A DNA stretch of 20,000 nt from an uncultured virus (IMG/VR IMGVR_UViG_3300024258_000016) (IMGVR_UViG_3300024258_000016); one strand, 5' to 3'. Shown: positions 1 to 17,089, numbered from the stretch's first letter. Notes: a model not told the origin generated them from the letters alone. Translations and numbers: made by a program.

Positions 1-399
1 AACGTAATTATATGTAGTCAAAGTTTCTGAACAAGCGATATCTTCCATTGTCAAATCTTCCGCTCGGACGTGAACATATCCTCCTTGATCTTTTGCAACT
101 AAACCTTTTCTTAAGTTAATTTTAAGTTTACACATTACTCGATGTTCATACGATCCTCTCAAACTCATACCATTTTCAAGAAAGATCTCTCTACTTGCTA
201 ATTTTGGAGAATTATAAAACGCTTCAATCTTTCGATATCCATTGAGAGTTCTTACACTAATATCGACAAAGTCATTCTTAATTGTATTATCTTCTTCAAT
301 TTTGATATCAAGTTTTTTGAATAATTCACCAATTTGGATTGTTTCTAACTTGTTGGTATTGTTCCATTTAATGTCAACATTTGTATCGTAAAATTGACA
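1..399 (-). mobile_element. Intein (N-terminal splicing region) inserted immediately after the Walker A lysine of the helicase
   Basis: After GGGK the expected S/T is replaced by CQFYDTNVDI (block A, Cys codon 397-399). This is followed by IQIGELF, VRTLNGYRKI, block B-like LENGMSLRGSYEHRVM and VRAEDLTMED, all typical of Hint domains. Confidence 0.88.
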
Positions 400-1026
400 T
401 TTTCCGCCCCCACTGGTCGAAATTACCACTCCCATTTCGCCCTTACCAAGGCCACCTTGAGTAATCTTGTCAACTTCTTCCCAACCAGTAGGGATCTCTT
501 TTCTCATCTTATCTTCGTATCTCTTCTCGAAATCGATGATGAGATCTTGACCCAGATTGTTATCGACACCTAACTTTAGAGCATCATTAACAATCTTCTT
601 AATCTTATCATACGATGCCTCATTGGCCTCTTCAATCAACGGAACAGATTGTAAAATAGCTGCCTTTAACTTCTGCCCCTTGGCAAAGTCAATAGCTTTC
701 TCTTTTGTATATTCTGCCCCCTCAATCTCTACAGATAACTTAATTTTGGCATAGAATCCCCTAACCTGTTCTTGAACAAGTTCAATTTCTTTATCCAACT
801 CTGTTCTCAATAGAACTTCAATAATTTTATATGTTGGGTGAGTCTTGTATTTATGTCGATAGTCAAAAATGAGATGAATAAATGTTCTTAGATATTCATA
901 CTCAAAAAAACTATACTCTAACAACTCCCCAAATTGATCCGCAAAGGCCCTGTCAAGTAACAGCAAGTGTACTACATTCTCTTGAAAGCCCTTCCCAAAT
1001 CTTGAAAATGTTTCATTATTTGTCAT
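1..1026 (-). CDS. dnaB: Replicative DnaB/T4 gp41-like helicase, intein-containing (3' part outside window)
   Basis: Not in the ORF track. Manual translation from ATG at 1026 (MTNNETFSRFGKGFQENVVHLL...) is open to the left edge. It contains IPTGWEEVDKITQGGLGKGEMGVVISTSGGGK, the typical SF4 helicase lead-in to Walker A. Confidence 0.9.
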   Translation of the reverse strand, partial: MTNNETFSRFGKGFQENVVHLLLLDRAFADQFGELLEYSFFEYEYLRTFIHLIFDYRHKYKTHPTYKIIEVLLRTELDKEIELVQEQVRGFYAKIKLSVEIEGAEYTKEKAIDFAKGQKLKAAILQSVPLIEEANEASYDKIKKIVNDALKLGVDNNLGQDLIIDFEKRYEDKMRKEIPTGWEEVDKITQGGLGKGEMGVVISTSGGGKCQFYDTNVDIKWNNTNKLETIQIGELFKKLDIKIEEDNTIKNDFVDISVRTLNGYRKIEAFYNSPKLASREIFLENGMSLRGSYEHRVMCKLKINLRKGLVAKDQGGYVHVRAEDLTMEDIACSETLTTYNYV

Positions 1027-1047: not shown

Positions 1048-1227
1048 TTAGTCTTCTACTAATGATTCTGTATCTACATAATTTAAATTACCATCACCAT
1101 CAAATGTAAAACACGCCTCTGCATCTGCCTTTGTAAACACAACATAAACAGAATCATATCTTGTAGTTGTTGTATATTTAATTTCTGCCCATTCTAGCAT
1201 ATCGATAAATTGCTCAAAATGTGTCAT
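1048..1227 (-). CDS. Small hypothetical protein (59 aa) with FTFDxDG motif
   Basis: Below the ORF-track cutoff. Manual translation: MTHFEQFIDMLEWAEIKYTTTTRYDSVYVVFTKADAEACFTFDGDGNLNYVDTESLVED*. It fills the gap between endonuclease and helicase, with AAGGA upstream. Confidence 0.75.
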   Translation of the reverse strand: MTHFEQFIDMLEWAEIKYTTTTRYDSVYVVFTKADAEACFTFDGDGNLNYVDTESLVED

Positions 1228-2254
1228 ATTGTCCTTTTGTTAACAAGTTGTGTTCATAAAGGCTTATCTTTTTTTCAATTACCCAACCCTTATAATTTCC
1301 AACTCTTTTTATCTCTTGTAAATTAACTTTATCTTTCCAACTCTTTACGTTCTTGTTTATTCCATCATCTCCGTAAAAAAAATCTCTCATTCCTTTTGTC
1401 CCTATAATCGTATACAAATTCCCCAAAGGATCTAGAACATAATAAACTAACTTTAATTTTTCTGATGCTTTGTCTGTAGTTTCTTTTGTATGTTTTTTTC
1501 CAAAAAAGTGATTGTTTTTCCCTCGACAACTTTCTCTAAACTCTTCGCTTCTGGGCTTTCTAAGTTTTTCGAGAGTCGCTTCCGAATGCCAGGGTTTTCC
1601 GTTATTTCTCTTCGTCTCTGTTGCTCGTTCCCTTTGCTCCTTTGTCTGTGGAGTTGCCCGAGCTTTTTTCAAATTTTCACTAGAAATCTTTATATTTTCT
1701 GGCCTTCTTGAGTTTTTTGAAATCTTTTCTTTCGTCTCTTCGCTGTGTCGTCTACCTGTTGCTTTCTTCCTAAGATTTTCGATTGCTTCTGGATGTTCTT
1801 TGTAATGCTTCTTTAATGATTCACTAATTTTTTTCCTGCATTCATCCTCTTTGAGGGGATCTCGATTTCTCTTTTCATTTGGATGATTTTTGTAGTAATT
1901 TTTGGTTGCTTGACTTAATTTCTCTCTTGTTTCTTTAGAAACTTCATATGCTTTTCCTCCACCACCTTCGAGGTTACACAAATTCCCTAACCCATATTTT
2001 TCAATCTCTTCCTTTTCTCTGTCATACACGGTCTGTTCATCCAAACATTCAAACTCCTTTTTATATTCAACATCCTCATATCCTTCATTTAATATTTTCT
2101 TAATTTTTGAATATAGTTTAGCATTTGTCCCGTTTGGGTACTGTCCTCTCTTCACAGCATTGATATGGTGCCTCATTCTATTTCCGCTTCCCTTCCCAAC
2201 GTAAAATACAGTTTCGTCTCTTGGGTCGATCAATAAATAAACATAATATTCCAT
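1214..2254 (-). CDS. Free-standing GIY-YIG (LEM-3-like) homing endonuclease with NUMOD3-type DNA-binding repeats
   Basis: N-terminal YYVYLLIDPRDETVFYVGKGSGNR...E...N GIY-YIG domain; repeats such as VSKETREKLS, HSEETKEKIS, HSEATLEKL and GKNNHFFGKKHTKET; strong GGGAGG RBS. Confidence 0.88.
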   Translation of the reverse strand: MEYYVYLLIDPRDETVFYVGKGSGNRMRHHINAVKRGQYPNGTNAKLYSKIKKILNEGYEDVEYKKEFECLDEQTVYDREKEEIEKYGLGNLCNLEGGGGKAYEVSKETREKLSQATKNYYKNHPNEKRNRDPLKEDECRKKISESLKKHYKEHPEAIENLRKKATGRRHSEETKEKISKNSRRPENIKISSENLKKARATPQTKEQRERATETKRNNGKPWHSEATLEKLRKPRSEEFRESCRGKNNHFFGKKHTKETTDKASEKLKLVYYVLDPLGNLYTIIGTKGMRDFFYGDDGINKNVKSWKDKVNLQEIKRVGNYKGWVIEKKISLYEHNLLTKGQYDTF

Positions 2255-5788: not shown

Positions 5789-6784
5789 TCAATCCTCCAA
5801 TTGCGAATCTCTTACAATTCGTCTCATGTGTTTAAATAACCCTACAAGATTCAAGTCCATGAATCCATCTTCTCCCATCATCCTTTGAAACTTTTGTTCG
5901 TGAAGTTCCATCTTTTGCTCTTCGAGAGTAAGTCTTACTTTGTCCTTGTCATTAATAGTCATCATTGGAGATGATAGCTGCATCATCTTATAGTTTCTTT
6001 CAATGATGTCTTTACCTTCAAGGATATCGTTATAGATCTTTAATTTGCTCTCTTCTTTGTCAATCATGTCAGAACAGTAATCGTAAATATCGCTCATATA
6101 GATATCACGATCTTCATGAAGAAATGGAACCTTCTTTGTCAAAGTCTTAAAACCAACACCACGAACTCCATGTAAATTATCTGATGCATCACCAATGATT
6201 GCCCTGGCCAATGCCATATTCCTTGGATGTACCTTATACTGCTCAATTATGTTCCCTACATTTAATAGTTCATTTTGAGTAGGTCTCATCAACAATGTTG
6301 AACCATTGCAAAGTTGCATGAAATCCTTATCCGAGGACACAATAATCTTACCATATTCTTCCAGACTTGTCAAGGATGAAATGTACGAAATAACATCATC
6401 TGCTTCGGTCTCCGGGAACATAAATTGATGGATTGGAAGGTGTGATAAAAACTCTACAAATCTGTCCATCTGCCAATACTTGTTCTCTCTAAGGTCTTCC
6501 TCTGACATCCCCTCTGTCTCATAATTTCGACGAATGGGTTTTCTACCCTCCTTGTACTCCTTCATGATAGTACGACGCTTCTTTGACCCTCCTGGGCCGT
6601 CATAGACAGCTACTATCATATCTGGCTTAACCTTGTCACAAAGGAATTGTAACGACTTCAATGTCCCTACAATTCCCCCAATTGGATGTCCTGTCGTTGA
6701 ACTGATATTTGGTACCACAATATATGACTTTAAAAATGCCATAGTTGTATCCCAAACGATAATTCTTTTCTTTCTAATTGTCAT
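5789..6784 (-). CDS. 5'-3' exonuclease / flap endonuclease (T4 RNase H / PolI 5' nuclease-like)
   Basis: VYDG, YKEGR, EADDVI, SSDKDF and GDASDNLHGVRGVGFKT (H3TH). The start is probably ATG at 6784 (MTIRKK), with GAGG upstream, rather than 6811. Confidence 0.92.
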   Translation of the reverse strand: MTIRKKRIIVWDTTMAFLKSYIVVPNISSTTGHPIGGIVGTLKSLQFLCDKVKPDMIVAVYDGPGGSKKRRTIMKEYKEGRKPIRRNYETEGMSEEDLRENKYWQMDRFVEFLSHLPIHQFMFPETEADDVISYISSLTSLEEYGKIIVSSDKDFMQLCNGSTLLMRPTQNELLNVGNIIEQYKVHPRNMALARAIIGDASDNLHGVRGVGFKTLTKKVPFLHEDRDIYMSDIYDYCSDMIDKEESKLKIYNDILEGKDIIERNYKMMQLSSPMMTINDKDKVRLTLEEQKMELHEQKFQRMMGEDGFMDLNLVGLFKHMRRIVRDSQLED

Positions 6785-6989
6785 ATAAAATTTCCTCTTC
6801 TCTGTTCTCAAAAATGAGTATACAATTTTCTCGTATATATTCTAAATCATATGTAAATGTTAAATATTGTAGTGAAGAATATACCAGAAAACGAGAATAC
6901 ATCACCTCTCTGTACGTTCTGTCTTCCAAAATTGTCACATATTCTTCATATTCTTTATCATACCAGATACTGTGTTTTCTAATCTTCAT
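6774..6989 (-). CDS. Short paralogous hypothetical protein (array member 5)
   Basis: Likely start MKIRKHSIWYDKEY after GGAG; shares SIWYD with member 4 and KEY..Y..ILE.R with member 1. Confidence 0.7.
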   Translation of the reverse strand: MKIRKHSIWYDKEYEEYVTILEDRTYREVMYSRFLVYSSLQYLTFTYDLEYIRENCILIFENREEEILYDN

Positions 6990-8322: not shown

Positions 8323-9477
8323 CTATTCATCTTTTATAGGAATACCATTATTGTTGCCTTCGACATCATAAAAGTCTGACGCCTTCCCCGTCTTGTGAGC
8401 AAACTTGTAAATCAATTCCTCATCAAGAAGTTCAACTACACGATTATAGAATTTCTCTTCTTTTAATTTTTCAATCCACTCTGATTGCCTCCACTTCCCA
8501 CTATTTGTTCCGTCAGCATAATCAAGAGTATTCCACGCTCCTGGATGAAAATGTTCTGATGATCGAATAGCTTCGAACCAAGATTCTTCATCCTGCACTG
8601 CAAGTTTGTCTCCACCCCAAAGGATCTTGAAGATCGCTTGTCTCCATTGAGTACCAAATCTTGACTTAATGATTGTAGCTTTTACTTCCGATCCGATCCT
8701 AAACCCATTATCATCTTCTACGAATGAAGATTTAGCAGCCCTACCTTCTAACCAGATTCTCAAAGAATAGGCATAAGTTAACGACTTTCCTCCTGGTGTG
8801 AAATATTTTTCTTTAATTGTTGCATATTTCATATTAATCGAAGAATCAATGTTGATCTTCAACTGATTAAGAACTAACAATGTCGATTCGTGATTCGCAA
8901 TTGGAATCAATAGCTTTCGCAATCCTTTAGACATAACTCGGGCTTTGACTGCAACATCTTCGGCAGGATTGAAAGTCCCTGTCATATCTGAATTTGTTGG
9001 TGTTTGTGCTAAAGAATCAAAAACAAACAATGTTCGATTAGGAGACGATCCCAATACATCTTCAATAGTTTCAAGAACAAATTCGCAAGATGTTGCTTGA
9101 ACATACACAAGCTTTTCCAAATCACATCCAATTTGTTCAAGAAAATCGGGATCAATTGCAGATTCTGAATCGAAATAAATCACATCCATCCCTTGTTCAA
9201 GAGCGTTTGCTGCAATTTGCGCTGCCATGTAAGATTTGCCAACAGATTCTAATCCTGCCAATTCTACAATCTTGCCAATTGGGATCCCTCCCACTCTTCC
9301 AGATGCAATGACATTATCTAACCATTTACTTCCTGTTGGAATCCATCCCTTTACTTCTGTTGGGTTTTCGTCTTTATCGAGGTTGAAGGCAACATTCATT
9401 CCTGCCTTCTTATTGATCATCTTTCGAATGTCAAAAGCAGTTGACACTTTTACTGCCTCTTTCTTCTTCTTTGCCAT
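8323..9477 (-). CDS. recA: RecA/UvsX-like recombinase
   Basis: IPTGS..LD, Walker A GLESVGKS, YFDSE, Walker B LFVFDS, LNQL, TPGGK, KSRFG. Confidence 0.95.
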   Translation of the reverse strand: MAKKKKEAVKVSTAFDIRKMINKKAGMNVAFNLDKDENPTEVKGWIPTGSKWLDNVIASGRVGGIPIGKIVELAGLESVGKSYMAAQIAANALEQGMDVIYFDSESAIDPDFLEQIGCDLEKLVYVQATSCEFVLETIEDVLGSSPNRTLFVFDSLAQTPTNSDMTGTFNPAEDVAVKARVMSKGLRKLLIPIANHESTLLVLNQLKINIDSSINMKYATIKEKYFTPGGKSLTYAYSLRIWLEGRAAKSSFVEDDNGFRIGSEVKATIIKSRFGTQWRQAIFKILWGGDKLAVQDEESWFEAIRSSEHFHPGAWNTLDYADGTNSGKWRQSEWIEKLKEEKFYNRVVELLDEELIYKFAHKTGKASDFYDVEGNNNGIPIKDE

Positions 9478-9510
9478 TTATTATTCTCCCTTCTTGTTAA
9501 TAATAGCACT

Positions 9511-9548
9511 TGTGGAGGGATAGGCTTAAACTATACTATCCCTCCACA
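9511..9548. other. Perfect 13-bp inverted repeat (hairpin) between ssb and recA
   Basis: tgtggagggatag (9511-9523), 12-nt loop, ctatccctccaca (9536-9548). No U-tract follows it on the coding (minus) strand. Confidence 0.8.
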
Positions 9549-9572
9549 TTATTTATCCAATCTTATGTGTTC

Positions 9573-10367
9573 TTATACTTCATCCAATTCTGCAAACTTG
9601 CGGTCAATCTCGTCTGCTTCCGGGTCTGATGATGGCTGATCTTCTCCTTTTGGAGTTTGTGTAGCATTCTTCTCAACAGGAGGGGCATCATTTAGCCCAA
9701 GAGACTCGTCAAGCTTCTCTTGGATCTCGTCTCTTGTCAGTCTTCGCATTTGTTCCATAATATTGGGAATCGAAGACATAATGCCCTGCACCTCTTCTGC
9801 AGTCTCTGCCAACTTGCTTGGCATTCGTCGAGGGTCGATGACAGTATCAGGATACAACTTTCCTTCTGCCGTTGCATGAAACACTGTCAAGTCTGTCCCC
9901 GTCTCTGAGTCTGTAAGATCTCCATAGTCAGGGTTTGTGAACTTACGAGTAAGTTCTGCCGCAACTGTCTTACTATATGACCAAATTCGAGGACCATCCT
10001 CTTCCTTTCCTCTTACTAGTACTGGAGAATACCAACGCTGATTGGCGAACATCTTAATAGCCTGTCGCTTCATTGTCTCATCACCAGTTTCCTTGCTCTT
10101 CTGGAACAGTTCTGTTGCCCAATCGCATACAGGACAATCCTCCCCAAAATTCTTTCGAGGACAAAGGAATGATGCAATTGTCTTTCCATTCTTTGTCAAA
10201 TAATGAAGATGATAAGTCTCCCAAGCATCGCCATTAACCTCCAACATTCGGAACACTTGTGGTTCCTTTGTAACCTTTGCAAAAAGATTATCTTTCTTGT
10301 CCTCGCCGGAACCTCCAGCTTTGAAACTCTTGGCACGATCTGCCATCTTACCTAAATTAACTCCCAT
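9573..10367 (-). CDS. Single-stranded DNA-binding protein, T4 gp32-like
   Basis: H...CP...CPVC zinc site, R-W-Y-x-P-V-L-V-R-G, YGDLTD...GTDL, acidic C-terminal tail (DEIDRKFAELDEV); adjacent to recA; AGGAGG RBS. Confidence 0.85.
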   Translation of the reverse strand: MGVNLGKMADRAKSFKAGGSGEDKKDNLFAKVTKEPQVFRMLEVNGDAWETYHLHYLTKNGKTIASFLCPRKNFGEDCPVCDWATELFQKSKETGDETMKRQAIKMFANQRWYSPVLVRGKEEDGPRIWSYSKTVAAELTRKFTNPDYGDLTDSETGTDLTVFHATAEGKLYPDTVIDPRRMPSKLAETAEEVQGIMSSIPNIMEQMRRLTRDEIQEKLDESLGLNDAPPVEKNATQTPKGEDQPSSDPEADEIDRKFAELDEV

Positions 10368-10380
10368 CTTGAACCTCCTT

Positions 10381-10683
10381 TTATACCTTTGTCAGTTTGT
10401 ATGTGACGCCTTCAATTGTCACAGTTTGTCCTTCACATGAAGGATTTAATTTTTTGTTATAGTCTTCTTCTGTGTATTTTAGACCTTCAATATACCATTT
10501 TTTCCTGCCATCGGTGTAAATGGCAGCAGGGCCGTCAATGCGATGACACTTGCCATTTTGATACCAAAATTTGGCACCGTCAGCGTCTTTGATGGCAGGA
10601 CCATCATTGCGGTGATAAACACCATCTTCGTTATACCAAATAGTGGTACCCTTGTCGTTGATCGTTACTCTATACACTTCCAT
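10381..10683 (-). CDS. HRxDGPA-repeat (MORN-like) protein
   Basis: Repeats WY.xxG.xHRxDGPA (HRNDGPA, HRIDGPA); C-terminal VTIEGVTYKL. Confidence 0.8.
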   Translation of the reverse strand: MEVYRVTINDKGTTIWYNEDGVYHRNDGPAIKDADGAKFWYQNGKCHRIDGPAAIYTDGRKKWYIEGLKYTEEDYNKKLNPSCEGQTVTIEGVTYKLTKV

Positions 10684-10952
10684 TACTTGGATTCTCCTTC
10701 TGTCAAATTAAATCTACTTTCACTAATTTCCAAATCTTCGACATCTCCAATTGCAGCCTTCCAATTGAAAATACGAAAACCATCTGCATCAAGATCATAA
10801 ACCAATTCCAATCCTTCTCCTAATGTTCGCTTCTTGCCAGTCCCTTTGACAAGTCCTTCCATTACCAACGTTGGCATGTCAGAAAGACGAACAAAGAACA
10901 TGTCCCTATTTTCCCCATTCTTCTTCTTAAATGTTCCACGATACGCCTTCAT
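10683..10952 (-). CDS. Small Sm/SH3-like beta-barrel protein (WYL_2/DUF2693-like)
   Basis: FKKKNGENRDM...VYDLDADGFRIFNW matches the F.K.dG..R.M...yD....gwRsF pattern; AGGAGG RBS. Confidence 0.65.
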   Translation of the reverse strand: MKAYRGTFKKKNGENRDMFFVRLSDMPTLVMEGLVKGTGKKRTLGEGLELVYDLDADGFRIFNWKAAIGDVEDLEISESRFNLTEGESK

Positions 10953-10978
10953 AGCAGCCTCCTTGATTGTTATAATAC

Positions 10979-11007
10979 ATTATACCCTAAGTTCCCCAAA
11001 TAGTCAA
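10979..11007 (-). promoter_or_regulatory. Sigma70-type promoter for the Sm-like/ssb/recA genes
   Basis: TTGACT (11007-11002), 17-bp spacer, TATAAT (10984-10979), then AGGAGG and ATG at 10952. Confidence 0.85.
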
Positions 11008-11053
11008 GTCCTTTCTTTTAATTTTTGTTCTCGCTCCTTGAAATACCTGTCCC

Positions 11054-11863
11054 TTAATAAGGCTGAATGTGAGAACTGAAAGCTTGAACGAAACAATAAC
11101 TACGTTCATAATCTGTGGAATATATACCATACGTTGTTTTGATCTTTCCATTATTTGACTGCTCCTTCATGTTGTCTTGGATAGTTGATAGCAACTCCCC
11201 ATCTTCTTTTAAAATGCTCTCAGGTACAGCATAATAATATCTCTTTTCTCTGATATTGTCAATAGGAAAATATAACAGATCTTTCTTTTCTTCAATGTCA
11301 AATGTACCAAACGTTGACATCCTTGCCGTCTTATAGACAGGACTCATATTGCCCATGAGAGGGGCTGTGTTGGTGTATACGTTGATCATATGGTAAGGGT
11401 AGGCTATCGCATCATTAATCTTACTTGTGTAGCCAATAATGGGCATATTGCCTAAAATGTGTGCCAACTGTCCTACAGATATAATTGACATATCTGTTAT
11501 TAATCCTGATCTAGCAAACTCTTGTAAAATATGGAATGTCGCCCTATCTTGTTTTAATGCAACTTCATCTGTTATGTTTAATATGTTTGGCTTAATGTAC
11601 AATACCTTTAATGACTTTTCCTTTACCTTTTCCATCAATGCCAAGGTCATTCCAGAAATGTATGATCCTCCTGTTACGATGAATGTCAATTCTTCATCCT
11701 TGTCGTTACACAATACCCCCATATTGAAATCAGATGCACTTGTCTCATATTCTTCTGGTGTTTGATTTCCTACTTCCATTATCTCTTTTAAATTATATTC
11801 TGGATATTGTGATAATTTTTTTGCCAACGCTATCGACTTTTCCCCTAGTGATATGATTTTCAT
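11054..11863 (-). CDS. Divergent tubulin/FtsZ-like protein
   Basis: N-terminal KIISLGEKSIALA (degenerate T1 loop I.GlG..G.nia), FIVTGGSYISG (degenerate GGGTGSG), then helix, VLYIKP strand, ...SIIS and INDAIA in tubulin/FtsZ order and spacing; 269 aa. Confidence 0.6.
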   Translation of the reverse strand: MKIISLGEKSIALAKKLSQYPEYNLKEIMEVGNQTPEEYETSASDFNMGVLCNDKDEELTFIVTGGSYISGMTLALMEKVKEKSLKVLYIKPNILNITDEVALKQDRATFHILQEFARSGLITDMSIISVGQLAHILGNMPIIGYTSKINDAIAYPYHMINVYTNTAPLMGNMSPVYKTARMSTFGTFDIEEKKDLLYFPIDNIREKRYYYAVPESILKEDGELLSTIQDNMKEQSNNGKIKTTYGIYSTDYERSYCFVQAFSSHIQPY

Positions 11864-13032
11864 ATATTTATTTTCTCCATTTCTCCAAAGTTTTTTCCCA
11901 TCTCAAGGGTTGATAGTATCTTCCCATATCTCGTATCTTCGAATATTCTCTTTATCTCTCGGACAAGCGATCTGTCTTCTCTATGTAGGTCGATTGCTAC
12001 ATTATCGTGTACCATAAATGACACAAAACTCTTCTTTCCTTTTAGTAGCTTTCTAATCTCGTATACTTGCTCAAGAAACATATCGGATGCTGTGCTTTGA
12101 ATGATATAGCTCAAAGCGTGATGGTCATCTGCCTTAATCTTTCTTCTAAAGTCTGTATATACTATACCATCGCGATAGTATTTGTCAAGGATTTTCTTTT
12201 TATCGTATGCAAACCCAAAATCTTGCACTTCAACGTGTTCTTCTCTTTCACTTCCATATAACCAAGCAAATGTCATCTTCTTTACTTCTGTTCTTGTCTT
12301 ATCTTTCTTTAATATTTGCCTATTGTGCTCGTGAATATCAATGCTTGGTTGCTTCTCACCATTTAGACCCAACAAAACGCGCAATTCTGCTGCATTATAA
12401 TCAAGATTGACGAACATGTCATTGTGAGGAACAATTACAACTCTATCTTCCTTCTTAATATTAAGAATTGGAAATGATTTACTATTAATCCCCAATCTGC
12501 CAGTTTTAGATGTAAATGGATTATAAGAAAGCACTCCTGATGGGCATTTGTTATAATTAATCATCTTTGCCATTCTCTTATCAATATTTAATGGCCTAAT
12601 ATCTGTGATTATCTTTATAATCTTCAACATATGATTGTAATTTTCTGGTTTATCGTAGGTATCGAATACATATTTGCATATTAGATCTTTAATTCTTGCA
12701 TATTCTCTTACAACTTTATCCGGCACAAGATCATAGAAACAATACTTATCCAAGTTGATCTTTGAAGTGGCAAAAGATCTATAGTATGCTTTCAATTTAT
12801 TGTTGATTTGTTTGAATTCTTCTTTTAACCCTTCTGGACATACTTGTGATGGTGTTTTACCTTCAGCATATAATTGTGCATATTCGATTGGTAGGTCTTC
12901 GAGATATGGGTAATAATTCCATGTATCTGTAATAATTGGCTTATCTACTTCTTCTAATTCGTAGAATGTTCCTTCAACACAGATACGCTTACAGTTGTAG
13001 TTTTTGTCATCTAATACTTGAAAAAGGGACAC
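11860..13032 (-). CDS. polA: Short family A DNA polymerase (polymerase domain, no evident exonuclease)
   Basis: KTGRL, motif A LDYNAAELRVL, motif B RTEVKKMTFAWLYG, IIQSTASD, motif C MVHDN; GTG start with AAGGAG RBS. Confidence 0.88.
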   Translation of the reverse strand: MSLFQVLDDKNYNCKRICVEGTFYELEEVDKPIITDTWNYYPYLEDLPIEYAQLYAEGKTPSQVCPEGLKEEFKQINNKLKAYYRSFATSKINLDKYCFYDLVPDKVVREYARIKDLICKYVFDTYDKPENYNHMLKIIKIITDIRPLNIDKRMAKMINYNKCPSGVLSYNPFTSKTGRLGINSKSFPILNIKKEDRVVIVPHNDMFVNLDYNAAELRVLLGLNGEKQPSIDIHEHNRQILKKDKTRTEVKKMTFAWLYGSEREEHVEVQDFGFAYDKKKILDKYYRDGIVYTDFRRKIKADDHHALSYIIQSTASDMFLEQVYEIRKLLKGKKSFVSFMVHDNVAIDLHREDRSLVREIKRIFEDTRYGKILSTLEMGKNFGEMEKINI

Positions 13033-13049
13033 AACTTCTCCTTATGATA

Positions 13050-14162
13050 TTATGTAATCTCTGTATTAATATACCACAAGGATCTTTGTATGTCAACGTG
13101 TTTCTTTAGAGTGAGTGCTTTTGATTTGATTTTTTTCTTTTCTTTATCGGAATAGTCATTTTGTGCTTCGATGAATTTGATATCAAGATAGGTGTTAAAC
13201 CAATAGTCGTCATTGTACTTTCTTGATACAACTCCAACTTCTCTTTGTCTTTGACAACATGTTCTCTCTTCAATGATGAAGTCTCCCTTCTCTCTTAAGA
13301 AGTCTTTATACGATTCTTCAATCATTTTTTGAAGTGTTGTTAACTCATCTCGATATACAATATTATAATATACTTCAAATATATTGTCAAGGGTAATCTC
13401 GTATGTGTCCATATATCTTTGCATCTTTGGAGAATTTAATTGTGCTACCAATCTCCAAGGGACATTCTTGTCAACTGCAAATCCAAACCTTTGCGCTTCG
13501 TTCTTATAAAAGCTGAACATATTGTCTTTAATGTATTTATTGTACTTCGCGTTGTCATCATCGTATGTCCCTTCTCCAATTTCGATAATGAGACCATTTG
13601 TTCTTTGAAAGAACATGTTTGATGTCAAAAATAAAGATTGAGTGATAGGAAGCATTTTACCATTAAGCATAAAAGATTTCAACAATTCCTTTACATAGTC
13701 GTTAAACGTTACAATCTTCTTATCATCTACAGAATCGAAAAGTGGTTTCTTGAAGACTCCTGTGAAATAATTTTCATATGTTGCATCCAAGCCTATCCAT
13801 CCTACTTTTGGAGTAATGTTCGTAAAGATACTTTTCTTGTCAAATGTTTTGTTATTTGATGCTCGTTCCATACTGGATTGGAATTCTTTAAAAGCATCTG
13901 CAACAAAATTTAATACTTGTATCTTATCTATGTTGACAAGATATTCCTCTTTTAATTTAATAGAATTCCCTTCCTTGTCAAGTAAACCGTAGTATTTATT
14001 TTCTTCCCAAAGATCAATAGTCCTGATATTTCTGACAAGTATGTTGTCTTTGTAATACTTTCTTTGTTTAAAGAGATCTGAAGATACAAGTTCATTACTT
14101 GCCTTTGGTAATTCGATCTTGCCTTTCTTATTTTTTCTTAATGTATTTGATGTTAAAATCAT
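13050..14162 (-). CDS. Hypothetical protein, last gene of the tail/baseplate block
   Basis: 370-aa ORF. Motifs FVADAF and GFAVDKNVPWRLVA look conserved, but function is not recognised. Confidence 0.8.
   Translation of the reverse strand: MILTSNTLRKNKKGKIELPKASNELVSSDLFKQRKYYKDNILVRNIRTIDLWEENKYYGLLDKEGNSIKLKEEYLVNIDKIQVLNFVADAFKEFQSSMERASNNKTFDKKSIFTNITPKVGWIGLDATYENYFTGVFKKPLFDSVDDKKIVTFNDYVKELLKSFMLNGKMLPITQSLFLTSNMFFQRTNGLIIEIGEGTYDDDNAKYNKYIKDNMFSFYKNEAQRFGFAVDKNVPWRLVAQLNSPKMQRYMDTYEITLDNIFEVYYNIVYRDELTTLQKMIEESYKDFLREKGDFIIEERTCCQRQREVGVVSRKYNDDYWFNTYLDIKFIEAQNDYSDKEKKKIKSKALTLKKHVDIQRSLWYINTEIT
13068..13096 (-). promoter_or_regulatory. Sigma70-type promoter for the polA/tubulin-like pair, inside the 3' end of the upstream gene
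   Basis: TTGACA (13096-13091), 17-bp spacer ending TGG (extended -10 TGn), TATATT (13073-13068). Confidence 0.75.
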
Positions 14163-14223
14163 TTTTATTTTGGCAACCCATCTTAGTCCAGACCTGGGTC
14201 TGAAACTGGGTATCCTCCATTAG

Positions 14224-16740
14224 CTAGGGATTATCTAACACTTCAGCACCATTCTCAGAAGTTAGGGCTTGAATACGGGATCTTTTCAAGTCTGCACCCG
14301 TTTGCCAAACTCCTTTTAGTGTAGTTTCATATCTATCTCTTGATAGATTATTTGCAACATCAATCACCATGTAATATCCGCCAATCCCTAGTGTATCGAG
14401 ATGTTCAGAAGGAACCCCCAATACTGTAGGATCTACATAAATATATTGTCCTGGTCTAAAGATTGGTAAACCATACAATACAACATCTGCATCATATTTG
14501 TCCCTTAATTGGTGAGCATCTAATGTTCCTTCCGATTCCACTCTGGCCTCTGGAAGATATTGTTGTGTTGTTTTTTGGAACGTTACCTTCTTTAAAAATC
14601 CAGTATCTTGTGCCAATCTGAAGTGGTGAATTCCTTTGTCTTCATCTTCTTTCTCGTTTCCCCACAAAGTATCTGAGGCTATACTGTTAACATAGAGAAC
14701 AATGTATGTCCATCTGTGTTCAAGGGCTTCTGCATCATTACTCTCCGAGACATCTTCATCAAACTTTGCAATTTTCATCATTGAAATGTCAATTTCGTTG
14801 GTATCTGTTGGGATATATTGCCCCCATCCTCCATAGTGCTTACGTCCAGGAACTACAATGTGCTCCAATCCTACAGTTACAAGGTTATCATTGGGCTTGT
14901 CAGACACACATTCAGAGCCCAATATTGGCTTAATCATTGTTGTAACGACATCTCTGATTAGTGTTTTCAAATAGTATTTTTGCTTTTCTCTTGCGACAAC
15001 ATACTCAAAGAACCACGTCTCAAGTAGTCCAAGGCTAATTGGCAAATATGCCAAACTTACACTTTTAGTAATACCGTCAATTGGATTTTCATAACTTAAC
15101 GTTCCCAAGAAAAATCGTACCTTTTTTTCTTTTGGATTATACGAACTAAAGCAAAGATCAAGAAAGTCTCCAAAATAAACAAACGGGATTTCAACAGCAT
15201 CTTTTCCAACTTTCATTCTGTTATTTACAAATTCTTTGACATTACTGGCATCTACTTTTTTTGCTTCATTCTTCATCTTGTTATTAAGAAGAAAGTGAGC
15301 TTCGTTTCCCGTTTTCCCTGTTACAATCTGCTTAACCTCGACATTATTATCATTAATTTTTAATACCTTTTTTAGTTCATCATCCTTATCGTCGTCATCT
15401 TTGTTTTTATAGATATCGAGGACAACAGGATCACTTACAATTGCTTTGTAAATCTTGTTAGATGAATACAATCTTCTTAAAAATGCAGAATATACCTCTC
15501 CTTTATATTTTTTTCTTTCCTTGTCAATTTCGTTTTGAATTGCTGATAAAATTTCATCAATAGATTTAAAATAAAGATTTTTTCCCGTCCTTCTCAAAAG
15601 TCCAAAAGAAATGGGAATTCTTTCAACTAATTTTGCAAAGTTTCTGATTTCAATGTCTTTATGAGTTCTTACACTAACAGAGGTCGTATTCGGAGTATCG
15701 TTGTAGGATGGCTTAGATGAAAGAGACTCTCCAGAAAAGACTACATTCTCAATCTTTATCTTTTGTTGTTGTAGGTGTTTTTGCAATTCTTTTGCCGCTT
15801 CGAAAATGTCAAAAAGCTCTTCGAAATCTTTATGTGCTTCCATAATTGCAACATCTGATAGATTTAGAACGTCAGCATCTTGACTTACCAAAGCTCCTTC
15901 AATCGCTGCCTGATACTCTGCATCAATTTCTACCGTTCCATCTTCTTTGTATACAATGTTGTGACTGATTAGTCCAAGGAACATTTCCATATTCAACTTT
16001 TTTAATGTTTCTTTAAGCTTTGGGCTATCGTCAAACAGTTCTTTTAAAATTGGTCCTGTTGGCAAGTTCCATCCAACAACCAATCTAACCCTGTGATGGA
16101 ATGTCCCAGACTGTGTTAAGAGAGCGTTCTTTGTCGCAACAGTTTGTGTACCATACATAATCAGATCTGCAAAACTATGCTCCAAGTCTTCTTTCATCTT
16201 TCTTACTTCAAAGACATCTTGCATTGATGCAAAATAATATTTAATCTTGCATTTAATCATCTTGTTTGTCTCTGCCATGTTAGTTCCATAGAAATCAAAA
16301 CTAATATCTTTAATACCTGATCCTTCTACTCTTCCCTTTCTGTCTTGAAGAATCTTATCAACAGAATAGGGGTCTACATGATCAGGAAAGGCTACTTCAA
16401 AAGGAACGGTCTTGCCAGTAGAATTGTGTTTGACTACATAAAGACGAATCTTTGGAACTAAAGATGCCATCTGTGCTGGGGTAATCTCGTTAATAACAGA
16501 ATTCATATTCTTCTTTGATACCATTTCATTAATGAGAAGTTGAATATTCCCTGTTAAAACTGAGAGGTTGTTAAATTTCCCCTTTACAATTGCTGCTTTT
16601 TGCTCGTCTTCAGTCTTTCCTTCATAAGTTCCCCAAGCTTCTCTGTTGAAATCACTTCTATCTTGGAAGATCTCTGGTGCATTCATTAACACGCATTGAG
16701 GTTGTAGTCTTTTCTTCTCTAATTTCTTTGGTGTTCCCAT
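14224..16740 (-). CDS. Baseplate hub-like structural protein (T4 gp27 / Mu gp44 / gpD-like C-terminus)
   Basis: C-terminal YDADVVLYGLPIFRPGQYIYV...LGIGGYYMVIDV.N......YETTLKG is typical of hub proteins; lies downstream of TMP, tube-like and LysM genes. Confidence 0.65.
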   Translation of the reverse strand: MGTPKKLEKKRLQPQCVLMNAPEIFQDRSDFNREAWGTYEGKTEDEQKAAIVKGKFNNLSVLTGNIQLLINEMVSKKNMNSVINEITPAQMASLVPKIRLYVVKHNSTGKTVPFEVAFPDHVDPYSVDKILQDRKGRVEGSGIKDISFDFYGTNMAETNKMIKCKIKYYFASMQDVFEVRKMKEDLEHSFADLIMYGTQTVATKNALLTQSGTFHHRVRLVVGWNLPTGPILKELFDDSPKLKETLKKLNMEMFLGLISHNIVYKEDGTVEIDAEYQAAIEGALVSQDADVLNLSDVAIMEAHKDFEELFDIFEAAKELQKHLQQQKIKIENVVFSGESLSSKPSYNDTPNTTSVSVRTHKDIEIRNFAKLVERIPISFGLLRRTGKNLYFKSIDEILSAIQNEIDKERKKYKGEVYSAFLRRLYSSNKIYKAIVSDPVVLDIYKNKDDDDKDDELKKVLKINDNNVEVKQIVTGKTGNEAHFLLNNKMKNEAKKVDASNVKEFVNNRMKVGKDAVEIPFVYFGDFLDLCFSSYNPKEKKVRFFLGTLSYENPIDGITKSVSLAYLPISLGLLETWFFEYVVAREKQKYYLKTLIRDVVTTMIKPILGSECVSDKPNDNLVTVGLEHIVVPGRKHYGGWGQYIPTDTNEIDISMMKIAKFDEDVSESNDAEALEHRWTYIVLYVNSIASDTLWGNEKEDEDKGIHHFRLAQDTGFLKKVTFQKTTQQYLPEARVESEGTLDAHQLRDKYDADVVLYGLPIFRPGQYIYVDPTVLGVPSEHLDTLGIGGYYMVIDVANNLSRDRYETTLKGVWQTGADLKRSRIQALTSENGAEVLDNP

Positions 16741-16744
16741 CTCG

Positions 16745-17089
16745 TTATCCTATCGTAAGTAATGTTATTATCCTATCTAGAGGATAAGGAATGTTTATCT
16801 GCTCTCCTAATTGAACGTGGAACTCTGTTGGTTTTTGATTGTAAAATGCAATAACCCACCACACCTTGGGATCTCCATAGTGTTCTGCTGCCAATTTCCA
16901 ATAACTATCGCCAGATGTCCATATGTGCTGAACTGTTGTTATGTCTCTCAACTGTTCTCTTGATGGATATGACAATTCTGGTGTGTTATATTGGTTGATA
17001 TGTTTTACATTTCTTTTATCGAAATAAGAACGATACTGTTCTGCATTGTTCCTCATCTTTTGTCTGTTATCGTATCTTGTTCTTGTCAT
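16745..17089 (-). CDS. LysM-containing baseplate wedge / tail X-like protein (gp53-like)
   Basis: HIWTSGDSYWKLAAEHYGDPKVWWVIAFYN...LGEQINIP. Confidence 0.85.
   Translation of the reverse strand: MTRTRYDNRQKMRNNAEQYRSYFDKRNVKHINQYNTPELSYPSREQLRDITTVQHIWTSGDSYWKLAAEHYGDPKVWWVIAFYNQKPTEFHVQLGEQINIPYPLDRIITLLTIG

Follow-up and report, generated by a model that had tools for sequence, protein, structure and literature searches.

Two overlapping genes in a viral genome

The DNA analyzed here (the window) is a stretch of 20,000 nucleotides (nt) from an uncultured virus, IMG/VR record IMGVR_UViG_3300024258_000016, and corresponds to bases 47172-67171, reverse strand, of this 122.7-kb record, which is estimated to be 59% complete. 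Nearly all genes of the window lie on the minus strand, and two of them are the subject of this work. One encodes a 390-residue family A DNA polymerase, called mini-PolA below (11860..13032, minus strand), assigned by Pfam (PF00476) and by an AlphaFold2 (AF2) model. The other encodes a protein of 269 residues (11054..11863, minus strand), for which an AF2 model, structure searches, and a family alignment point to a minimal tubulin/FtsZ fold. The TGA stop codon of the polymerase gene overlaps the start codon of the tubulin-like gene in an ATGA at 11860..11863 (minus strand; the sequence reads ...ATATGAAAATC...), just as an initial annotation of this DNA had claimed. The mini-PolA open reading frame (ORF) begins with a GTG start codon, preceded by a AAGGAGAAG ribosome-binding site.

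Sigma-70-like promoter matches lie on both sides of the pair. The upstream one, also predicted by the initial annotation, is a TG-extended TTGACA-17-TATATT at 13068..13096 (minus strand); it agrees with the consensus at 11 of 12 positions, is a consensus match only, and falls within the 3' end of the upstream 370-residue ORF. A second match, TTGACT-17-TATAAT at 10979..11007 (minus strand; 11 of 12), sits between the stop codon of the tubulin-like gene and the next gene and had been taken to delimit the pair. The site does exist, but equally high-scoring sites occur inside the polymerase gene (12422 and 12188) and inside the tubulin-like gene (11262), and promoter-like matches are abundant in this AT-rich region (42 observed versus 22.2 ± 4.4 in shuffled sequences). 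Because no terminator-like site was found on the minus strand of the region, the promoters are possible starts that do not close the unit. Among related loci (described below), a site matching the consensus at 10 or more of 12 positions is present within 120 nt upstream of the polymerase gene in 21 of 52 and just past the tubulin gene in 31 of 68, compared with 106 of 1,360 random windows of the same loci. The borders of the pair are therefore enriched in promoter-like sites without always carrying one.

A minimal tubulin fold and its family

The AF2 model of the 269-residue protein, made from an alignment with 33 relatives, has a predicted local distance difference test score (pLDDT) of 88.8 and a predicted template modeling score (pTM) of 0.88. 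When the model was compared with 48,161 chains by VIA-align, CetZ was the best structural match overall (Z score of 23.4; 246 residues aligned with a root mean square deviation [rmsd] of 2.8), followed by CetZ2 (22.9), TubZ (21.5 for 4ei7, with 264 residues aligned and an rmsd of 3.5, and 20.0 for 3m8k), gamma-tubulin (20.6), FtsZ (20.1), TubZ of phage c-st (18.7; 4xcq), and PhuZ (15.0 to 15.2). All of the matches to the tubulin family cover model residues 1 to 269, and the next unrelated fold, a short-chain dehydrogenase, scored 7.8. Foldseek against the PDB placed FtsZ and TubZ at the top (E-value of 2e-11). The best matches in BFVD were phage proteins named FtsZ, cell division protein, tubulin, or PhuZ; the top one was a 452-residue phage FtsZ with a template modeling (TM) score of 0.77, and there was no close match from the same family. 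An independent ESM Atlas model had a pTM of 0.90. Its structural neighbors outside the family are viral PF00091 clusters (TM scores of 0.84 to 0.87), and some viral clusters among the Atlas neighbors by features and structure carry TubZ C-terminal Pfam families. The tubulin-like reading, originally made from the raw sequence, is thus borne out by structure prediction, VIA-align, Foldseek, and the ESM model. As modeled, the 269-residue protein is a complete two-domain member of the tubulin/FtsZ superfamily in minimal form.

The reduction is visible in the secondary structure that DSSP assigns to the model. The N-terminal domain has five strands, not six, with S3 and the glycine-rich T3 loop missing or reduced; the T7 region is a 17-residue loop without helix H8; and a short hairpin takes the place of H9. 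The chain stops directly after the last strand (S10), without a C-terminal tail. Like tubulins, the protein is acidic, with an isoelectric point of 5.25 (family median, 5.65). In comparison with CetZ and FtsZ, the identity is just 10 to 13%, the S3/T3, H8, and H9 elements are missing or reduced, and there is no conserved T7 acid as far as the region can be mapped by topology. The protein itself matches no Pfam, PHROG, or NCBIfam family. NCBIfam ftsZ was matched by 1 of 33 family members (E-value of 0.061), and PF00091, tied with TrkA_N as the Pfam family most matched by members, was hit weakly by 5 of 33 (best E-value of 0.036). A PF00091 search of the whole genome gave no match, nor did a tblastn search with the protein against 50,697 phage records.

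The protein belongs to a large family, with 103 relatives in 90% clusters and 865 clusters at 50% identity with E-values of ≤1e-3, 345 of them with E-values of ≤1e-30. Members are 258 to 300 residues long, mostly 270 to 300, and as far as sampled they come only from uncultured marine T4-like (Far-T4-type) myoviruses of about 150 to 200 kb. A very divergent member, P0231, was used as a query for more loci, and none was confirmed. Conservation was assessed in 237 sequences, namely the 90% clusters plus the best 150 of the 50% clusters, and this mixture makes the proportions below rough. The T1 to T7 loops were placed by topology and by short, nonsignificant local alignments of SN...Y..KIN in the family with IPND...F...ND in FtsZ and of GLGxAGC with GGAGF in PhuZ. 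In this mapping, T1 would carry G5 (0.89), G7 (0.99), G10 (0.88), and C11 (0.80), most commonly as GLGQAGCN; T4 would carry G65 (0.95), G67 (0.68), and S70 (0.82), most commonly as GGSG(H/S/Y)ISA; and P92 (0.91) and D/E93 (0.89) would fall in T5, N130 (0.87) in T6, and Y145 (0.82) and N150 (0.89) in H7. The T7 region (165 to 181) has no strongly conserved acid, the best E/D proportion being 0.70 at position 178. Hence, most members have a plausible nucleotide pocket made of GxGxxGC(N) in T1, GGSGxIS in T4, an Asn after S6, and Y...N on H7. Conservation peaks at family-specific residues. E37, Y39, and E40 belong to a PEEYE motif that would lie where H3 begins; Q114, R118, and S119 come from LQEFARSG, where H5 ends; R181, T184, and G186 open the C-terminal domain; and Y23, Y89, Y209, and the C-terminal Q267 complete the set.

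The pocket is not retained throughout the family. G5, G7, G10, N130, and N150 are kept together in 185 of the 237 sequences. The other 52 depart from this set, and among them G67 is replaced by S, E, or D in 79%, while the proportion of Y145 is 0.62, compared with 0.88 in the canonical group. E37, Y39, E40, Q114, R118, S119, R181, and Q267, however, stand at 0.83 to 1.00 in both groups. The window copy is among the departing sequences. Its T1 loop reads SLGEKSIA, which does not fit GxGxxG (family consensus, GLGQAGCN); its T4 loop is TGGSYISG and not GGGTG(S/T)G, so that the initial description of a degenerate tubulin was apt; it has V at position 130 and no D or E in positions 165 to 181; and its linker between S2 and the PEEYE motif is the shortest in the sample (7 residues versus a median of 17). 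Judged by its sequence, it is a decayed member, one of about one-fifth of the family with lost pocket residues. Because the family-specific residues are kept in both groups while the pocket residues are lost, the alignment suggests that the function of the family depends on the former and that canonical nucleotide binding was lost more than once.

A protein with an FtsZ-type fold that lacks the acidic T7 residues needed to activate hydrolysis by its neighbor could act on the host. As a tubulin mimic of the FtsZ type with a defective T7, it would cap or poison host FtsZ polymers to stop cell division during infection. Phages do block FtsZ, though via unrelated small proteins. However, the 269-residue protein has no detectable sequence similarity to FtsZ, and copolymerization with host FtsZ is therefore unlikely; moreover, its gene resides in a replication module and not among early host takeover genes, and the family-specific invariant residues have no FtsZ counterpart. 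We consider such a role very unlikely.

A trimmed polymerase in a conserved replication block

Mini-PolA scores 39.5 bits against Pfam DNA_pol_A (cutoff, 34.3), and its AF2 model has a pLDDT of 90.5. The closest structures by VIA Z score are human Pol nu (22.9), the Klenow enzyme (21.4; model residues 1 to 386 on chain residues 351 to 928), and T7 DNA polymerase (21.2), with which mini-PolA shares the palm, fingers, and thumb fold and the residues of motifs A, B, and C; by tblastn it is 22 to 26% identical to mycobacteriophage Pol I. At 390 residues, it is much shorter than its aligned relatives (574 to 860 residues). An alignment of 30 homologues from related loci bears out the catalytic Asp of motifs A and C and the R/K/F/Y of motif B that had been recognized initially. 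D211 of motif A and H342 and D343 of motif C are invariant, as are R247, K251, and Y259 of motif B, where F255 is nearly so; the motif B spacing is presumably that of R/K/F/Y in Klenow. The residue following HD is S in 22 of 30 homologues, N in 4 (including the window copy), E in 2, and A in 2. The HDN that had been noted in place of HDE is therefore indeed present, but it is one variant of an unconstrained position. Mini-PolA differs from Klenow, T7 DNA polymerase, and Pol nu in lacking the second carboxylate of motif C, in the state of its exonuclease part, and in having its nuclease in a separate gene. From alignment and model, it is a polymerase domain with intact catalytic residues that is apparently active.

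The N-terminal residues 1 to 148 resemble DEDD exonucleases only weakly (VIA Z scores of just 5.4 to 6.5), and they align with the exonuclease part of Klenow-type enzymes, which rules out a novel domain. D8, the only remnant of a would-be Exo I motif, is the sole invariant acidic residue in the 30 homologues, followed two residues on by an invariant Lys, and the initial remark that this region has no Exo motifs agrees with the alignment. Because a single acid is invariant and the likeness to DEDD enzymes is weak, we regard the N terminus as a vestigial, exonuclease-dead stub of about 100 to 150 residues. The invariant residues of the stub comprise C14, C65, and C98 in addition to Q5, D8, K10, and W38, and the Cys set could be a metal site or form disulfides.

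Mini-PolA also lacks a 5'-3' nuclease domain, and a 5'-3' exonuclease/flap endonuclease (FEN) is encoded separately at 5789..6811 (minus strand; Pfam 5_3_exonuc_N, 4e-23; phrog_107). Outside the window, the same genome encodes a DnaE-type Pol III alpha of 1,138 residues (77837-81253) with PHP, catalytic, finger, and HhH domains, which is also found in all 3 relatives of at least 95% completeness. A single mini-PolA was counted in each of 5 relatives. Because FEN is separate, a DnaE-type polymerase is present, and there is one mini-PolA per relative, mini-PolA is probably not the main replicase, a role that would fall to the DnaE-type Pol III alpha. Most likely, mini-PolA and FEN together represent a split Pol I that would serve in gap filling, Okazaki fragment maturation, or recombination-primed synthesis.

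The cultured cyanophage Mel-JY01 has a mini-PolA homologue, a 408-residue protein annotated as hypothetical (WWT39333.1; L124:2820-4046; hhalign probability of 97.3%, E-value of 2e-11). It is unrecognized by Pfam and has YD in motif C, not HD. This homologue would be an experimentally accessible relative.

The two genes lie within a longer run of phage genes. Two unnamed proteins of 838 and 370 residues are encoded between mini-PolA and a gp25-type baseplate wedge protein (16745-17089; Pfam and PHROGs). On the other side, small ORFs of 89 and 100 residues separate the tubulin-like gene from the genes of a gp32-type single-strand DNA-binding protein (9573..10367, minus strand; Pfam gp32, 1.9e-15) and a UvsX/RecA recombinase (8323..9477, minus strand; Pfam RecA, 2.8e-34; phrog_97). 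Beyond UvsX, Pfam and PHROGs identify FEN, an M15 endolysin, ThyX, a GIY-YIG homing endonuclease, and a DnaB-type helicase in the window. Outside the window, where a Pfam scan covered 85 ORFs of at least 100 residues, the record encodes a gp23-type capsid protein, a T4-type terminase, sheath and baseplate proteins, ribonucleotide reductase, an ATP ligase, and a DnaG-like primase. No match to the N-terminal domain of the beta clamp was found in 4 genomes. The nearest records by capsid protein are an uncultured 484-kb phage, Microcystis phage Mel-JY01, Flavobacterium phage immuto, and Rhodothermus phage RM378. These capsid relatives fall in the "Far-T4" neighborhood of Roux et al. 2015 (PMC4360716), a paper whose text on the Far-T4 phages, in the part available, mentions neither tubulin nor FtsZ.

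Several other features of the genome can be recorded. The DnaB-type helicase (window 1-1026, minus strand; L086:12146-14095) contains an intein, seen as an Intein_splicing match inside DnaB_C, and a second ORF, of 758 residues (L083:8096-10372), has a weak intein match. GIY-YIG/HNH homing endonuclease genes are scattered (window 1214-2254; L083:3172-4140; L084:5751-6986; L088:19165-19533). Repeated W-Y-x-N/D-G-x-x-H-R-x-D-G-P-A units occur in three ORFs (window 10381-10683, minus strand; L088:5186-5986; L089:4511-4897) that have weak, subthreshold Pfam matches to DUF6745. The first of these sits between the tubulin-like gene and gp32, and tblastn at E-values of ≤1e-3 detected it in none of 110 related loci fetched. 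The phage also encodes ClpP, a GroEL-type chaperonin, and DnaJ outside the window (L087:13599-15766; L088:6849-7445); HSP60 tends to accompany tubulin in jumbo phages, according to the available part of a survey (PMC7824862).

The gene order was followed in the best 80 of 562 confirmed IMG/VR loci; in 12 of these, less than 400 nt precedes the tubulin gene. The other 68 loci, which have enough upstream DNA, all carry mini-PolA on that side, and the order is the same in 27 of 27 such loci from a subclade whose members are about 30% identical to the window protein (two of these 27 contigs are also among the 68). Downstream of the tubulin gene, gp32 is present in 76 of the 80 loci, and the remaining 4 loci break off after about 340 nt or less. 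The block reads mini-PolA, tubulin, small variable genes in some cases, gp32, UvsX, and, further on, FEN, with tubulin always second.

This order bears on the idea of a tubulin-fold protein dedicated to mini-PolA, for example, as a processivity, tethering, or localization subunit kept at a fixed ratio by translational coupling. The stop-start overlap in the window and the constant position of the polymerase gene directly upstream fit this idea, as does the tight spacing in 53 of the 68 loci, where the two ORFs overlap or are at most 30 nt apart. A polymerase trimmed to 390 residues could plausibly need help in holding DNA, and the search for a beta clamp found none. However, the whole stretch from gp25/baseplate to UvsX is syntenic, and therefore adjacency by itself does not single out PolA as the partner; gp32 is an equally constant neighbor. 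In 15 of the 68 loci, moreover, the two genes are 283 to 2,625 nt apart. The intervening DNA holds an ORF of an unknown family of about 100 to 113 residues in 8 loci, a 4HBT thioesterase and a nucleotidyltransferase-like ORF of about 380 residues in 2 (L003:4404-5999 and L032:754-2381), and larger unknown ORFs in 4, whereas locus L039 has no intervening ORF and an apparently broken PolA. In Mel-JY01, the mini-PolA homologue stands in a similar module, followed by ORFs of 129 and 110 residues, a 428-residue protein with an S-adenosylmethionine (SAM) lyase domain, gp32, RecA, and FEN; there is no detectable tubulin relative in this module, in which the 428- and 253-residue ORFs were compared with the 269-residue protein. 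The 484-kb uncultured phage (LR756508.1) has a 452-residue PolA, a 358-residue ORF, gp32, UvsX, and FEN, and the 358-residue ORF shows no similarity to the 269-residue protein (hhalign probability of 0.1%) and no Pfam match, by sequence comparison only. Among proteins of 523 to 2,000 residues, none proved to be a fused or longer form, which is weak evidence. Predictions of a complex between the two proteins, run without controls, gave 0.39, 0.00, and 0.00, where the mark is 0.32, and speak neither for nor against a pairing. Of the proposal that a tubulin-fold protein partners a stripped-down polymerase, the fold and the conserved neighborhood have held; that neighborhood is not specific to the pair, and mini-PolA is probably not the replicase. 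A dedicated polymerase partner therefore appears unlikely to us.

A candidate scaffold for phage DNA replication

The reading that we tentatively consider most likely is that the 269-residue protein is a TubZ/PhuZ-like scaffold of the replication/recombination module that organizes replicating phage DNA. We favor it because the gene lies in the replication/recombination block, the protein is acidic like tubulins, and most members of the family keep a plausible pocket. To our knowledge, all characterized proteins of the tubulin/FtsZ fold (FtsZ, tubulin, TubZ, PhuZ, and CetZ) self-assemble. The tubulin-like protein would be produced alongside the proteins of replication and recombination, would self-associate, and as a scaffold would organize or position the replicating phage DNA. 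The conserved acidic residues mapped to the beginning of H3, together with the basic ones mapped to the end of H5 and to the stretch before S7, may provide contacts between subunits or to a partner. Canonical GTP binding would no longer be required for assembly in this phage. Positioning of DNA is also the role of the phage tubulins PhuZ and TubZ, according to the available part of a survey of jumbo phages (PMC7824862).

The two known phage tubulins illustrate both the likeness and the distance. TubZ, the partition tubulin of type III plasmid and prophage systems such as those of Bacillus pBtoxis/pXO1 and Clostridium phage c-st, has the same two-domain fold and is likewise carried by mobile elements. 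However, the matched TubZ chains have 303 to 393 residues, and the 269-residue protein has no tail, no GGGTG(S/T)G, and no PF00091 match; moreover, tubZ belongs to a partition operon, whereas the gene studied here lies in a lytic-type replication/recombination block. PhuZ, which forms the spindle of Chimalliviridae jumbo phages, is also a phage-encoded tubulin homologue, and the 269-residue protein is plausibly made during DNA replication. However, its structural match to PhuZ is lower than that to CetZ, TubZ, or FtsZ, it is tailless, and its phage is of a different lineage, with a gp23-type capsid and a T4-type baseplate.

Several points weigh against the scaffold reading. Self-assembly, nucleotide binding, and a localizing activity of the 269-residue protein are all predicted properties. 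Acids in T7/H8 activate GTP hydrolysis in tubulin-type polymers; the corresponding region, as mapped by topology, has no strongly conserved acid in the family and none at all in the window copy. PhuZ and TubZ use a C-terminal tail in their filaments, and the 269-residue protein has neither this tail nor H8. No TubR-like adaptor gene was found beside the tubulin-like gene, and none of the neighboring small ORFs matched a DNA-binding family in Pfam or PHROGs, although a very divergent TubR could escape such searches. The search for centromere-like iterons in 9400-14300 gave only two-copy chance repeats. Chimallin (phiKZ gp54) had no match in 4 genomes, the phage's own and those of 3 near-complete relatives, which is weak evidence from a single-sequence query with no positive control. 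At the sequence level, a profile of the 269-residue protein retrieved nothing relevant from PDB sequences (best, cysteine synthase with an E-value of 0.21), and hhalign gave probabilities of 0.2% with Escherichia coli FtsZ and 0.6% with phiKZ PhuZ. Because the sequence links to FtsZ and PhuZ are not significant, the T1 to T7 mapping depends on topology and short alignments, and the assignment of the invariant residues to contact faces is inferred. The missing tail and H8, the lack of a conserved T7 acid, and the negative searches for TubR/tubC and, more weakly, for chimallin count against a classical dynamic filament and leave real room for a role as an adaptor or polymerase partner.

As an adaptor, the protein would be a nonpolymerizing pseudo-GTPase, a rigid platform whose family-specific invariant residues bind another replication or recombination protein such as gp32, UvsX, or the DnaB-type helicase, which it could serve as a loader, with nucleotide being optional. 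The joint loss of pocket residues in 52 of the 237 sequences, with the set from E37 to Q267 kept equally in both groups, favors such a protein, as do the lack of a conserved T7 catalytic acid, of H8, and of a tail. In T4, the place immediately before gp32 is occupied by gene 59, which encodes the helicase loader; the tubulin-like gene likewise lies just upstream of gp32, and Pfam found no helicase loader among 111 ORFs scanned. However, every characterized protein of the two-domain fold polymerizes, 185 of the 237 members keep a pocket that looks nucleotide competent, and any binding partner is hypothetical. We regard the adaptor as somewhat unlikely. A bolder version has the tubulin-fold protein as a nucleotide-independent subunit of a recombination-dependent replication machine, bridging mini-PolA, gp32, and UvsX or loading the DnaB-type helicase via surfaces formed by E37/Y39/E40 and Q114/R118/S119/R181; we think this improbable, and the scaffold organizing replicating DNA remains our preferred, tentative interpretation.

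Full-text searching returned no description of this family, and the available parts of the Far-T4 paper (PMC4360716) and the jumbo phage survey (PMC7824862) contain none. One Atlas cluster of the family already carries the automatic name "Tubulin/FtsZ GTPase domain-containing," and hence the fold assignment itself is not entirely new. We know of only two kinds of characterized phage tubulins, PhuZ and TubZ, both of which have at least 300 residues, keep the GTPase motifs, and position DNA. The family described here adds a third type of phage tubulin, a minimal one, whose genomic place is unusual and strictly conserved.

This family is large and yet was missed by Pfam, PHROGs, and NCBIfam. With 258 to 300 residues, reduced T3, H8, and H9 elements, and no tail, it shows how far the tubulin fold can shrink, and the loss of the pocket in about one-fifth of its members, alongside a different set of invariant residues, provides a natural series on the tubulin fold without GTP. 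The accompanying 390-residue mini-PolA deserves attention as a very small, apparently active family A polymerase. The fixed position between a polymerase and gp32/UvsX gives a concrete, testable hypothesis. If true, a role as a subunit of the replication machine would be one that is known for no tubulin/FtsZ homologue, and the phages with such a system would belong to an abundant marine lineage.

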